DNA of 64,000 bases from Microthrixaceae bacterium (GCA_947449015.1 CANFQA010000002.1:13855-77854), one strand, 5' to 3'; counted from the first letter of the stretch, positions 45,366-49,667 are shown. A program made the numbers and translations. The notes: generated by a model not told the origin, from the sequence alone.

Positions 45366-45760
45366 TGCCTCTCGCCGTCGAACTCGTTTCCCCCGAGCGC
45401 ACGTTGTTCTCGGGTGAGGCCACCATGGTGCGTGCGCGCACCGTGGGCGGTGGCGATATCGCGTTCCTTACCGGTCATACCCCGTTCGTGGGGGCGCTTG
45501 CCATCTCTACGCTGGAGATCACGCTGGTCTCCGGCGGCTCCGAAGTCGTAGCCGTGCATGGTGGATTCATCGAGGTCAGCCATGACCGCGTGAAGGTGCT
45601 GTCTGATCTGGCTGAGCTCTCATCGACGATCGATGTTGAGCGGGCGCGTCGGGCCGAGGAAAAAGCACAAGCAGCGGTAGCCCGTGGCGACGAAGTCGAA
45701 GCACAGGGCGCACTGGCCCGCGCCACCGCTCGTCTCGCCGCATCCGGCCAACTGAGCTGA
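45365..45760 (+). CDS. atpC: ATP synthase F1 subunit epsilon
   Basis: VELVSPERTLFSGEA, FLTGHTP, VHGGFIEV and IDVERARRA. Confidence 0.96.
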
Positions 45761-45827
45761 TCCCGATCGGCCGCATCACGGTCGGATCGCATCTAACGTC
45801 AGTAGCCATGATCCACATGGCAGGTCG
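45728..45827 (+). repeat. Direct repeat, left copy (attL-like); includes the last 33 nt of atpC
   Basis: 45728-45814 is identical to 48905-48991 (87 bp); the match extends to 100 bp with 2 mismatches (ACAT vs TCTT). Confidence 0.97.
45764..45789 (+). terminator. Hairpin after atpC (inside the duplicated segment)
   Basis: CGATCGGCCG-CATCA-CGGTCG(G)ATCG: 10 pairs with one G-U and one bulge, no U-tract. Confidence 0.35.
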
Positions 45828-45957
45828 CTAGGTGAGCAACTGGAAACACGGGTGAGAAGTGACTTGATGTGTCTCGTAGTCGCGATTTCAAGTCGCGGAG
45901 ACCCACTGATCGCTTTCGAGAGACCCGGGTCGGGCTCACCTTCTGGTGTTCTTTGCG

Positions 45958-46518
45958 TCAAACCTCGAACATTTCGTGGCGCAATTCGAAACTGGTCTCG
46001 AGATTCGAGTCCCAATCAATGGAGCGAATGTCAACTTCAGGACCTATTCGGACTTCGGGACGGATCACCTCAAGGGTCTCTTCGAACCAGCCACCGCGGG
46101 CGACGTAGACATCGCGACCCGAGAGATGGAAGATGATTCCATGATCAATTGAGACCCTGAAGGCGAGTGCGCCTGCGATAAAGGCGTCCACCTGGGCTCG
46201 AACCACCGAAATTCGATCAATCGACTGACCCCTCTCGTGGAAGTACATAAGACCTCGGGACATTGCAGCTCGGGAATCTCCCATACCCTCCTGGATAGAG
46301 AGGGCGGCGAAGTCCTCTGGGCCGCTTTCGAGCGGTGAATCGACTAGGTCTGTGCCGATCGTGAATGAACCGGCTGAGGTAACGATATAGAGCGACCCGA
46401 CGGCGAATCGGCCTTCATGGAGCAGAGCTGAACCGCCGTAGTAATCCCATGTAGTTCCGATGTGGGAGTTGAGGATTAACTTCTCGCGTGGGGTCAAGTG
46501 TGTTTCAAACTCATTCAT
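45958..46518 (-). CDS. Acidic hypothetical protein (candidate immunity/antitoxin)
   Basis: 186 aa with about 29 D/E versus 15 K/R; ATG overlaps the stop of the upstream gene (46515-46518). No family recognised. Confidence 0.7.
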   Translation of the reverse strand: MNEFETHLTPREKLILNSHIGTTWDYYGGSALLHEGRFAVGSLYIVTSAGSFTIGTDLVDSPLESGPEDFAALSIQEGMGDSRAAMSRGLMYFHERGQSIDRISVVRAQVDAFIAGALAFRVSIDHGIIFHLSGRDVYVARGGWFEETLEVIRPEVRIGPEVDIRSIDWDSNLETSFELRHEMFEV

Positions 46519-46883
46519 GTTGAGCTCCTAACGAAGTGGATGCGTTGAGTCTTAATTGGTCCGCCGCTTTTCGAACGTGTGAGTTGGATCGAAGGAGACC
46601 CATCTCTTGATGTTGGTCGAACACTGATACTTGAACCATCGCTGAAGAGCACTATCTTCGCTCCATTTTTGGCGATAGTTGCTTTGGGGCCGTTCTTCGT
46701 CGCATAAGCAAAGAATTTTTCAGAAGAGTTCCCAGGGTTTGAACTTGCGATTCGACGACGGTTCGAACTGGATCCGGGCTCTCCGAAATAGCCTGCCTTG
46801 AGCTGGCCGAATTCCCGCACGAGTTGATGGAGGTTGCTCTGGATAGATCGTGCGCCTGGAGTACTCCCGCTACCCCCGCCCAT
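46515..46883 (-). CDS. Small basic 'MGGG' protein (candidate nuclease-type toxin)
   Basis: Starts MGGGSGS at ATG 46883, overlapping the DUF4417 end by 14 nt with GGAG upstream. 122 aa with 18 K/R versus 5 D/E; C-terminal DGSSISVRPTSRDGSPSIQL...KTQRIHF. Confidence 0.7.
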   Translation of the reverse strand: MGGGSGSTPGARSIQSNLHQLVREFGQLKAGYFGEPGSSSNRRRIASSNPGNSSEKFFAYATKNGPKATIAKNGAKIVLFSDGSSISVRPTSRDGSPSIQLTRSKSGGPIKTQRIHFVRSST

Positions 46884-47565
46884 CGTTGACTCCGTTTCTG
46901 GCAAGAGCGATCCGCGGAGCGAATATGAGCAACTCAACGGAGCGGTGCTTAAGTGAGTTCTCGATACTCGGCGAAAGGGGCCGCCCGTGGAGAAGGATAA
47001 GCGGTGGCGACAGGACTTCGGCGAGTGCGATTAGGCCTTCTTCAAAGTAGAACTTGTCTTCCCGACTTCGCCAGCAACCGTGGTTCGACACGGTAACTGG
47101 AATGCCGGATGGCACACCTGCGAAACAAAAGTCGTAGTCAATGCTGGTACTCCACCTAATCGTAGGAATGACCGTTAGGCCGCGTGACTGAAAGTAGACA
47201 CCGACTTCTCGGCTCATCCAAACATTGCCGATTCGCTTGTGACGAGGCATAGACCGATGCAATGAAAAATCCGGTGTCGCAACGCTGGAATATCTTGAGA
47301 TTCGGAACAGCTGCCGGTGAGGACTCCTCACTAAGCCGGAGATGCGATTGTCCTGAAGGTAGAAGTGGATCATCGAATCAGCTGGATCAGAGTCGCGACC
47401 AATGCGATCAAATCCGACCATATGTTTCGGGGGCTCCCTGAGGTCTGGCGGCGGAACCAGCTTGGGAATCTGTTCGGTTCCATCGGTTTGGCAAGGGGGA
47501 AGCCACTCTGGCGTCGTGACTACATGGGAAACGCTTCCCGTAGGAGCATTGGGGGGATATAGCAT
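46870..47565 (-). CDS. DUF4417 family protein
   Basis: IHFYLQD, VATPDFSLHRSMP, GNVWMSR, FQSRGLTVIPTIRW, YDFCFAGVP and ILLHGRP match the DUF4417 pattern as I recall it. Confidence 0.82.
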   Translation of the reverse strand: MLYPPNAPTGSVSHVVTTPEWLPPCQTDGTEQIPKLVPPPDLREPPKHMVGFDRIGRDSDPADSMIHFYLQDNRISGLVRSPHRQLFRISRYSSVATPDFSLHRSMPRHKRIGNVWMSREVGVYFQSRGLTVIPTIRWSTSIDYDFCFAGVPSGIPVTVSNHGCWRSREDKFYFEEGLIALAEVLSPPLILLHGRPLSPSIENSLKHRSVELLIFAPRIALARNGVNDGRG

Positions 47566-47621
47566 CTAAGTAATCCTTGGTGTTCGTGTAGGGAATGCAG
47601 GGATTTAGGCGCAAGCCGCTG

Positions 47622-47651
47622 GTGTGGGCGGAGGTGCAACTCCGCCCACAC
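47622..47651. terminator. Perfect 12-bp hairpin between the HTH-peptidase gene and DUF4417
   Basis: GTGTGGGCGGAG-GTGCAA-CTCCGCCCACAC. Confidence 0.6.
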
Positions 47652-47676
47652 ATCTGCTTGGTTGAGCTGCGTGTGT

Positions 47677-48783
47677 CTAGTTCCAGGAGTTGAGGTCCTC
47701 CTTGACCGAAGGAATTCGCTTATTGAGGCGAGAGTTCCAGGGAATGCGACCGTCACGCTGAAGTCTTCCGATGATGAGCGATTCACTAATCCCTCGGCGT
47801 CTGGAAAGTTCGACTACCTGAGCTTCGGTTACGGGTCCGGTGGATAGGTCCTCAAGATCAGGAACGAGCCAACTTCCTGCTTGAAGGTCCGCTGCAAGTT
47901 CTCGACTTGCCTCCTCAACCCTTTCAGAAGATTCGGGATCACTTATGTAGATCCCACCATTTTGGAGATGACCAAGTGATACGTGTGCAAGCTCATGCGC
48001 AATCGTGAACATGATCTTGTCGCTTCGCCCACCGCGACCTGAGATGGAAATGAGCGGGTGACCATTGACGACTGTGCAGACTCCATCAATGTTCCCCCCG
48101 GAATACGGAGGTACGAAGACAAGCGCAATTCCGACCTCGGAAAACCTCTCTGGCAATTCGCGAAAATCCTCACGCGTCCTGACGGTGGTCGCCAGTGAGC
48201 CACCAAGTTGTTCGAGGACAGTTACGTTTGCGAGCGGAGGCAGGTCGCCAGAAACGAGACTTCGAGACTCTGCAATCCAAGCAAGTTGCTGTCGGGAAAC
48301 TGGCCCGATCTTTTCTTTCCTGCGCGCAGAGGCCGAAAATATGATTTCGTCCTCTATGGAACTTATGCCGAGCAACTTATTTGCAGCCTTCTCAATCGTT
48401 TGCGGGTCCGAGTCGGGAAGCGTCCCCCTGCGAATCATCTCGCGTGTTGGCAGAATCCGCTCCACGCGGCTCCGGCTCTCGATTTCGCCGAGTCGTCTGA
48501 GAGTTCCTGAATCTTGGAATGCTGAGTTGAGGTTCTCACTCGCTCGAATCGTCATCCAACTGAGGGCAGAACCACCAAGGGCTCGACTTAGGTCAAGCGC
48601 CTCCTCCGGTCGGAGTGGAGATCGATGATTGACAAGGTTAGAGAGAGACTGCGCAGACCAACCGAGGACCCGAGCAAGGTCTGCTTGCGACCAACCTCGA
48701 GCCTCTATGTGTAGCCCAATTGCCTCGCGAATGGAGGAAAATATCGGGCTTTCATCATACATATCAAGGAATCCGTAATTCAC
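47677..48783 (-). CDS. XRE/HigA-type HTH fused to ImmA/IrrE-family zinc metallopeptidase
   Basis: N-terminal HTH ARGWSQADLARVLGWSAQSLSNLVNHRSPL...ALDLSRALG, then NIDGVC, DKIMFTIAHELAH (HExxH) and downstream ELAAD. Confidence 0.88.
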   Translation of the reverse strand: MNYGFLDMYDESPIFSSIREAIGLHIEARGWSQADLARVLGWSAQSLSNLVNHRSPLRPEEALDLSRALGGSALSWMTIRASENLNSAFQDSGTLRRLGEIESRSRVERILPTREMIRRGTLPDSDPQTIEKAANKLLGISSIEDEIIFSASARRKEKIGPVSRQQLAWIAESRSLVSGDLPPLANVTVLEQLGGSLATTVRTREDFRELPERFSEVGIALVFVPPYSGGNIDGVCTVVNGHPLISISGRGGRSDKIMFTIAHELAHVSLGHLQNGGIYISDPESSERVEEASRELAADLQAGSWLVPDLEDLSTGPVTEAQVVELSRRRGISESLIIGRLQRDGRIPWNSRLNKRIPSVKEDLNSWN

Positions 48784-48791
48784 GGATACTT

Positions 48792-48820
48792 GGTATAGAC
48801 CTGTGGATAATAAGTCGCAA
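48792..48820 (-). promoter_or_regulatory. Candidate promoter of the islet with a DnaA-box match in its spacer
   Basis: Minus strand reads TTGCGA-17 nt-TATACC, 8 nt before GTG 48783; the spacer contains TTATCCACA (48802-48810). Confidence 0.4.
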
Positions 48821-48904
48821 CCTTATCTTCACGAAGTAACTGCCAGCGCCGAATGCCCGAACCGTCGCACTCACATTTCGAGACATTTGGCTAATGGGGC
48901 CAAG

Positions 48905-49004
48905 GCTCGTCTCGCCGCATCCGGCCAACTGAGCTGATCCCGATCGGCCGCATCACGGTCGGATCGCATCTAACGTCAGTAGCCATGATCCTCTTGGCAG
49001 GTCG
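48905..49004 (+). repeat. Direct repeat, right copy (attR-like)
   Basis: Matches 45728-45827 at 98/100 positions; ends 12 nt before the GAP gene start. Confidence 0.97.
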
Positions 49005-49016
49005 AGACCAAGCGTC

Positions 49017-49667
49017 ATGAGCATGAATCTCGTTTTTCTCGGTCTTGCCACCACAGCCTCGCCATTGTTCCTTTTGGTGAGCGTGCTCATGCTGGCTCAG
49101 TCGCAGCGATTACGCGAGGCCACAGCACTGGCTATCGGATGGTTCCTGTCCATCGGGTTTTGTGCCGCCACGGTGCTACTGGTGGGTTCTGCCCTTCCTC
49201 AGGAAGGCGGACACCCGAATGGCCATCTCATGGCTGCGCTCGACCTGTTGCTAGGAGCAGGGCTCGCCCTGCTCGCCCTGCGATTCCGTCGCCGATTTCA
49301 GCGCGACCCGACCGCTGCAGTGCCGAAATGGCTCGACCGGGTTGGCAACATGTCGGTCATCGTGGCCTGTGGTCTTGGCATGTTCCTGCCGCCAACGGTT
49401 CTATCGTTCGCTGCCGGCAACGAGATCGTGCAACAGCATGTTTCGGTGCGCGCCGAATGGATTTTTGTGATCGTCTACGCGGCGATCGGTTCGATCCTGC
49501 AGTTCGCGCCGTTGGCTGTTGTTGCTGCGCAGCCGAAGCGTTCCACCCAACGACTTCTTATAGCCCAAAGGTGGCTCGAGGCTCACTGGCAGCAGGTGCT
49601 GATGCTGCTGTTCGCTGTGATCTCGTTGTACCTGATGGGCAAGGGTGCGTATTCGCTCAGTCGGTGA
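49017..49667 (+). CDS. GAP family membrane protein (LysE superfamily-like)
   Basis: LATTASP...LML, six TM helices, PKWLDRV and RWLEAHWQQV. Confidence 0.75.
   Translation: MSMNLVFLGLATTASPLFLLVSVLMLAQSQRLREATALAIGWFLSIGFCAATVLLVGSALPQEGGHPNGHLMAALDLLLGAGLALLALRFRRRFQRDPTAAVPKWLDRVGNMSVIVACGLGMFLPPTVLSFAAGNEIVQQHVSVRAEWIFVIVYAAIGSILQFAPLAVVAAQPKRSTQRLLIAQRWLEAHWQQVLMLLFAVISLYLMGKGAYSLSR

Follow-up and report, generated by a model that had tools for sequence, protein, structure and literature searches.

PD-lambda-2 of E. coli is a three-gene defence system in which component A is HigB-like and component B is a helix-turn-helix (HTH)-peptidase that was unexpectedly found to be toxic by itself, with A relieving the toxicity (Vassallo et al., 2022, PMC9519451). 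ImmA cleaves ImmR, and fusions of Xre and COG2856 domains are common (PMC2701414); Xre-peptidase fusions rank with the most common TA-like genes that lack an explanation (PMC2701414). CapH is cleaved by CapP in response to ssDNA, and fused CapH-CapP proteins are found at the head of defence operons (10.1101/2022.04.27.489752, 10.64898/2026.05.16.725639). In RosmerTA (RmrT/RmrA; PMC10440598), a protein with an HTH and an ImmA-type peptidase is found with interchangeable toxins on mobile elements.

The window, by which we mean the whole stretch of 64,000 nucleotides analysed here, contains an islet whose leading gene encodes a regulator with the same end-to-end architecture as component B of PD-lambda-2, a HigA-like Xre HTH followed by a C-terminal peptidase. 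Component A, encoded directly upstream in PD-lambda-2, and component C, which is P4-antitoxin-like and required for defence, are both missing, and downstream of the regulator, unlike in PD-lambda-2, are genes for a DUF4417 protein, a tagged toxin-like protein and an acidic protein; a role in defence is conjecture here. As in CapH/CapP, ImmR/ImmA and DdrO/IrrE, an Xre HTH is combined with an M78/COG2856 peptidase of the HExxH...E type (10.1101/2022.04.27.489752, PMC2701414, PMC6868357), and like CapH/CapP-type switches the regulator heads a potentially toxic operon. Unlike CapH/CapP and ImmR/ImmA, it is one chain, with a HigA-type HTH and a predicted helical linker of ~120 residues, and whereas capH/capP is described as divergent from its cargo, the regulator is co-directional with its own. 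The likeness to RosmerTA lies in the pairing of such a protein with exchangeable cargo on a mobile element, but RosmerTA is a two-gene unit in which RmrA neutralises an adjacent RmrT toxin, the RmrT proteins being mutually unrelated, whereas four genes make up the cassette here, among them a conserved DUF4417 gene and a separate gene for an immunity-like protein. With HigBA type II toxin-antitoxin modules the regulator shares a bona fide HigA fold in its N-terminal domain, and its relatives follow HigB-like genes, but HigB itself is absent here and there are ~270 extra residues, including the protease. For the cargo, the nearest published relatives are the MuF polymorphic toxins of temperate phages (Jamet et al., 2017, PMC5576092), which also have variable C-terminal toxin-like domains with a small cognate partner encoded next, close to the genes for packaging in phages of Firmicutes; in contrast to MuF, the constant part here is an N-terminal Gly-rich tag of ~10 residues plus a separate DUF4417 gene.

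The HTH-peptidase regulator and its fold

The regulator is the first of four co-directional genes (Table 1), and its ORF is intact, with GTG as the start codon. An HTH together with an intact HELAH motif had been noticed in the initial annotation, and both are confirmed here. Pfam HTH_3 covers residues 27-72 (E 2.3e-8, 34.4 bits, cut-off 23) and Peptidase_M78 covers residues 222-300 (E 2.4e-5, 24.6 bits, cut-off 22). HELAH corresponds to H263-E264-L-A-H267, and in alignments of 16 and then of 28 homologs H263, E264 and H267 show no variation, while E295 is invariant or nearly so. By analogy with the spacing in IrrE-type enzymes, E295 would occupy the third-ligand position. The regulator thus has what defines an M78 peptidase, HExxH and a downstream Glu, the putative ligand, in an M78 fold. 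The dN/dS of the gene is 0.17-0.25, which indicates purifying selection.

Table 1. Positions of the islet features in the window
Feature	Coordinates	Strand	Details
Left copy of 106-nt direct repeat, including the real atpC 3' end (stop 45760)	45722..45827	.	
Acidic 186-aa protein, immunity-like	45958..46518	-	pI 4.8
Basic 122-aa protein beginning MGGGSG; N-terminal tag plus variable toxin-like C-terminal domain	46515..46883	-	pI 11.5
DUF4417 protein, conserved cassette component	46870..47565	-	231 aa; Pfam E 5.5e-38
Terminator/attenuator-like hairpin, regulator/DUF4417 interval	47622..47651	-	12-bp GC-rich stem, 6-nt loop
Regulator: HigA-type HTH fused to M78 (ImmA/IrrE/CapP-type) Zn-peptidase, PD-lambda-2_B family	47677..48783	-	368 aa
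Regulator promoter (inferred)	48784..48820	-	six-islet alignment
Right copy of 106-nt direct repeat bounding the islet	48899..49004	.	

The best PADLOC match of the regulator is PD-Lambda-2_B (E 3.4e-19; residues 20-344 against positions 62-376 of a 402-position model), and the same model is the top PADLOC match of every homolog tested (E 1e-25 to 1e-45). The initial annotation had suggested a check with RmrA and CapP profiles and did not name PD-lambda-2_B; both kinds of profile are matched, but weakly and over the peptidase core only. The seven RmrA models (best E 6e-8) are confined to residues ~217-310, about 80 residues, and the CapP profile (E 4e-7) covers the peptidase domain alone. TIGR02607 gave E 4.4e-8, below the cut-off of the model.

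In comparisons with solved structures, the N-terminal domain proved to be that of a HigA antitoxin by sequence (3cec at E 2.5e-20, 2icp and 6chv; HigA chains in the PDB at E 1e-15 to 1e-20) and also by fold, with TM scores of 0.65-0.76 against HigA chains and the best superposition on 2icp (TM 0.76, rmsd 1.4 Å). For the peptidase domain, CapP (7t5t) is the best match by sequence (E 1.2e-8) and the top match by fold, and IrrE is also matched by sequence. Indeed, the AlphaFold model of the regulator (28-sequence alignment, pLDDT 88) gave the same two partial fold matches, to HigA and to CapP, and no solved chain in the fold search spans the whole protein.

Loss of the HigB partner and the link to DUF4417

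The right 106-nt repeat is 115 nt from the regulator start codon, close to the ~120 nt previously estimated, and the distance from that codon to Sap (49017), the next gene, is 233 nt. It had been proposed that no HigB/RelE toxin adjoins the regulator, and that this lack is atypical. Both points stand: neither a gene nor a remnant was found when HigB/RelE/ParE families (PF05015, PF09907, PF05016) were searched against the whole contig, with no match, and when a profile of 13 upstream partners of homologs was searched against the islet and six homologous islets, with nothing better than E 2 (positive controls, E 1e-31). The sole HigB-like gene of the genome is on a different contig, beside its own short HigA. 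The absence is atypical because a small upstream partner gene is present in all 16 homologs outside the clade of the regulator (16/16), and is HigB-like wherever it could be typed. Directly upstream of distant relatives (28-32% identity), either overlapping or adjoining, is a gene of 100-110 aa, annotated as HigB-like in L013. A full-length homolog was found in 11 of the 400 genomes sampled from the phylum, always with an upstream gene (11/11) and never with DUF4417 (0/11); at E<0.01, Pfam HigB-like or HigB_toxin matched five of the ten upstream partners from this sample, with some of these matches below the Pfam cut-off. Two genomes of the same order are arranged alike. The PADLOC PD-Lambda-2_A model was unmatched by the upstream partners of homologs.

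Two HigB-linked contexts may be recorded here. At L011:4641-8080, the HigB-like and HTH-M78 pair adjoins BubE, DUF6791-ThiF, Multi_ubiq and two Ser/Thr kinase genes, a context that is defence-island-like. In the phylum members L198 (2551-3687) and L201 (1993-3120), the pair is followed by a gene of ~375 aa, an order reminiscent of PD-lambda-2 A-B-C; the third protein of L198, the one searched, has no PADLOC match.

Only 16 relatives of the regulator were retrieved from 5.8 billion proteins in a word-based search, ten of them 49-98% identical, and on readable contigs the close relatives are followed by DUF4417, a small gene and a ~190-aa protein. The regulator belongs to an actinobacterial clade (100/100 support, 45-98% identity) that has lost the HigB-like gene. 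All clade members with readable context head DUF4417, a basic MGGG protein and an acidic protein in identical order and orientation, and this synteny holds down to 45% identity and across two insertion sites. The tie to a DUF4417 block proposed in the initial annotation is therefore upheld, by the clade-wide synteny, by the two insertion sites and by 36 further HTH+M78/DUF4417 loci (below). The conserved gene order speaks for coupling of regulator and cassette, not for the direction of control.

In the maximum-likelihood tree, the DUF4417-linked actinobacterial clade is nested within HigB-linked proteins. A second DUF4417-linked fused protein, from an Oscillospiraceae MAG (L089), is located on the other main branch of the tree, on a long branch. 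An exchange of HigB for DUF4417 therefore took place, and probably more than once. Furthermore, among 160 DUF4417 loci (80 genomic and 80 viral), 36 have a separate M78 gene directly upstream of DUF4417 (29/80 genomic, 7/80 viral), in other phyla and in phages. These M78 proteins are stand-alone (172-240 aa), are encoded 26-460 nt upstream of DUF4417 on the same strand, and are usually preceded by an Xre HTH gene of ~117 aa; the HTH and M78 pairs were confirmed by Pfam in two loci. When a profile of the split M78 proteins was searched in ~1.5 Mb of flanks, all matches but one fell directly upstream of DUF4417. In three further genomic loci, a fused HTH-M78 gene is upstream of DUF4417. Together, the actinobacterial fused clade, L089 and the split pairs indicate three or more separate recruitments of HTH and M78 domains to the DUF4417 cassette.

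In L016 (870-2000 and 6673-7631), which has the actinobacterial cassette copy that diverges most, an IS110-like transposase gene is beside the cassette, and a second, split HTH and M78-like pair is present ~2.7 kb downstream. Between L010 and L015, synonymous divergence rises from 0.24 in the regulator to 0.63 in DUF4417 and 1.6 in the acidic gene; the cassette thus looks mosaic, with its cargo end exchanged or evolving faster than the regulator.

Cargo, control region and insertion of the islet

The cargo genes are tightly packed, with an overlap of 14 nt between DUF4417 and the basic gene and of 4 nt between the basic and acidic genes. A gene with a Gly-rich tag is next to DUF4417 (within -80..+60 nt) in 128 of 171 DUF4417 loci, and the window has the same arrangement, DUF4417 directly followed by a tagged gene. 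The tag reads MGGRGASSG in phages, MGAGxHGGFGNT in many Firmicutes and MGGGSG in the window. In phages the DUF4417/tagged pair is just before the terminase genes, as for gp26/gp27 of phage A25 (PMC8066415). Some phages carry two tandem MGGRG-tagged genes with unrelated bodies after DUF4417 (L120:6578-7521, L128:6563-7493).

In a comparison of 46 dereplicated loci, 30 of the 52 pairs that resemble each other in the C-terminal domain also have similar third genes, against 0 of 983 other pairs, a comparison that is descriptive, the loci being related and not independent. The C-terminal domain of the 122-aa protein is common to the tagged proteins of L045, L067 and L083, and two of these loci, L045 and L067, have the 186-aa acidic protein as well. 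Searched with a profile of the C-terminal domain, 1.84 billion proteins gave 601 cluster representatives, most of them stand-alone; a few longer proteins carry it at the extreme C-terminus, one with a partial MuF match (25.3 bits, below the cut-off of 29.6). Variable tagged C-termini that track the next gene, together with this domain distribution, make the cargo look like a polymorphic toxin and immunity pair with DUF4417 as its constant partner. PADLOC, NCBIfam and PHROGs gave no match for the 122-aa or the 186-aa protein, and PADLOC gave none at E<=0.1 for any of the three downstream proteins.

For DUF4417, there was no sequence match in the PDB, and its AF2 model (pLDDT 92) has no fold match to a solved structure at E<1e-3. 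In a viral structure library, the best matches after DUF4417 proteins themselves are TGT/DpdA-like barrels of phages ('queuine tRNA-ribosyltransferase'), although these are weak (E 7e-3, TM 0.47). DpdA works with a ParB-like partner. A ParB domain is fused to DUF4417 in most viral copies (compare 10.1101/2025.10.10.680097). A base-exchange or glycosylase-type activity of DUF4417 on nucleic acid is a weak lead from the DpdA-like model and the phage ParB fusions.

Upstream of the regulator, a putative -35 element (TTGCGA, 48820-48815) and -10 element (TATACC, 48797-48792) are separated by a 17-nt spacer, with 8 nt from the latter to the GTG, and the spacer contains the box ATCCACAG (48808-48801). 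In an alignment of six islets, TTG, ATCCACAG, TA..C and TCCGTG are all invariant, with the layout TTGAC(or CG)-N17/18-TAnnCT, 6-8 nt and GTG; the last base of the -10 hexamer is C in the window and T in the other five islets. This layout and the invariant TCCGTG support the annotated GTG, and the distance from the -10 element to the GTG implies a leaderless mRNA. From its conservation and position, the box is a likely operator and is treated here as a candidate. It occurs exactly once in the window, and no second copy is present before DUF4417.

In the interval between the regulator and DUF4417, no promoter-like site was identified, only the hairpin, which begins 26 nt past the regulator stop codon. 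It is kept in seven islets, where 3 of its 12 pairs show compensatory changes (-23 kcal/mol, z = -4.0), and a hairpin still forms in the divergent L016 copy, where the sequence is different, which favours an RNA/DNA structure over a sequence-specific protein site. We read it as a probable attenuator or terminator that would hold cargo expression below that of the regulator. A Shine-Dalgarno-sequestering hairpin in the DUF4417 leader was considered and rejected, as it appeared in a single-sequence fold only, with no consensus across seven islets, and Rfam gave no match in 45600-49100 at E<=1. In L089, a 324-nt spacer before DUF4417 (L089:2060-2382) contains two copies of a ~25-nt unit, GCATTCCT.(A/T)(C/T)CGTAATGTGGTAA, each within a hairpin-like context.

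The cassette is an insert of ~3.1 kb, at 45828-48898 in the window, that occupies two different sites in related genomes and is flanked at each by a duplication of the target. In the window, the two repeat copies are 96% identical and correspond to the 3'-terminal 39 nt of atpC followed by 67 nt from the spacer between atpC and Sap. The GC content of the islet is 0.53-0.54, against ~0.62 around it. The regulator gene occurs in just one of 33 other species genomes of the genus, and an empty site, with atpC directly followed by Sap and PPK2, is found in two complete or near-complete genus members. In the metagenomic lineage of L004-L009, the module is ~3 kb away, between an amidohydrolase gene and a 147-aa gene, and its bracket is a 40-nt copy of the amidohydrolase 3' end (L004:3748-6833); for L010, the bracketing sequence is duplicated atpC coding sequence, at least 83 nt long. 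A recombinase gene is absent from every cassette copy. At L004:8071-8933, a lone 219-aa gene is bracketed by a 67-nt copy of the PPK2 end, also without a recombinase; two L004 inserts, each within a duplicated 3' end of a neighbour, suggest a general mode of insertion in this lineage.

A proposed protease-gated switch and alternative readings

We propose, with a probability of about 0.5, that the regulator is a single-chain switch of the ImmR/ImmA or CapH/CapP kind that gates the DUF4417 cassette. A repressor-protease of the PD-lambda-2B lineage would have exchanged its ancestral HigB-like partner for a mobile DUF4417 cassette. Presumably, the HTH dimer binds the box in its own promoter and holds down the level of the leaderless operon transcript, and the stem-loop past the regulator stop would reduce read-through into the DUF4417, toxin-like and immunity-like genes. 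A stress cue, which could be a phage product or, by analogy with IrrE, ImmA and CapP, ssDNA or DNA damage, would activate the peptidase domain. Cleavage in cis or in trans would then inactivate the HTH part and set off a burst of cassette expression. Against this switch, there is no second box before DUF4417, the -10 hexamer of the window has C at its end and not the T of the other five islets, and a hairpin that terminated fully would leave the cassette in need of a promoter of its own, of which none was identified.

A simple repressor is also at odds with the behaviour of PD-lambda-2B, the single member of this lineage examined by experiment, which is toxic when overexpressed and is neutralised by its HigB-like partner (PMC9519451). 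The regulator could instead act on or through a partner at the protein level, either neutralising the tagged toxin or DUF4417 in an RmrA-like manner, or being itself toxic and held in check by a cassette protein that has replaced HigB. Its best family, PD-Lambda-2_B, is indeed toxic alone and rescued by a partner (PMC9519451), many unrelated toxins are paired with ImmA-domain antitoxins (PMC10440598), the tree shows partner swapping, and RmrA profiles match the peptidase domain, although weakly and over ~80 residues only. We nevertheless hold such a role to be rather unlikely, since a co-varying acidic partner for the toxin-like protein is already part of the cassette, the box conserved within the promoter points to DNA binding there, and 36 loci have separate HTH and M78 genes of the ImmR/ImmA type, for which the known mode is repressor cleavage. 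It is less probable still that the peptidase processes cassette proteins, trimming the Gly-rich tag or destroying the immunity protein on a signal, with the HTH serving merely for autoregulation. In favour of it, an M78 gene adjoins DUF4417 and tagged proteins in three lineages, and among tagged proteins that are otherwise unrelated, conservation is highest in the tag; but about half of the sampled DUF4417/tagged loci (for example, 73 of 80 viral contigs) have no adjacent M78 gene, so the peptidase cannot be needed for tag handling, and the known M78 relatives cleave HTH repressors.

We regard as very improbable that the regulator has no role in the cassette and is either the leftover half of a decayed HigB/HigA-peptidase module of the PD-lambda-2 type or a regulator of islet movement. 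In favour of such a reading, the ancestral HigB partner is gone, and the islet is mobile and lacks an integrase. A relic would hardly retain intact catalytic residues and a dN/dS of 0.17-0.25, or the same order and orientation in all clade members down to 45% identity at two insertion sites; other HTH and M78 lineages were independently recruited to the same position, and no recombinase gene is there to be regulated.

The kind of protein is known, and its coupling to DUF4417 cargo is new: the literature searched links DUF4417 neither to HTH-peptidase regulators nor to toxins, so that the partner set is, as the initial annotation anticipated, new to that literature. Also new are a PD-lambda-2B-type fused regulator without HigB and its actinobacterial host range, a conserved, putatively leaderless promoter with its box and the hairpin, and a tree showing partner exchange. 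The locus offers a natural experiment in which one protein lineage has had its HigB partner replaced by other cargo, within a compact 3.1-kb unit that can be cloned whole, with a conserved candidate operator and promoter. It extends a DUF4417/tagged-toxin cassette found mainly in gut Firmicutes and phages to streamlined Actinobacteria. The recruitment of a protease-gated repressor on at least three occasions is the strongest comparative argument that the cassette endangers its host and is conditionally expressed. As a tentative and still doubtful extension of the switch proposed above, repressor-proteases of this kind may be dedicated, exchangeable sensors of an undescribed toxin class, consisting of DUF4417 and small Gly-rich-tagged toxins, and the actinobacterial cassette may be an abortive-infection or addiction module triggered by damage or infection. 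If that extension were true, repeated swaps between HigB and DUF4417 would explain PD-lambda-2B as a toxic hub and not as a plain antitoxin.
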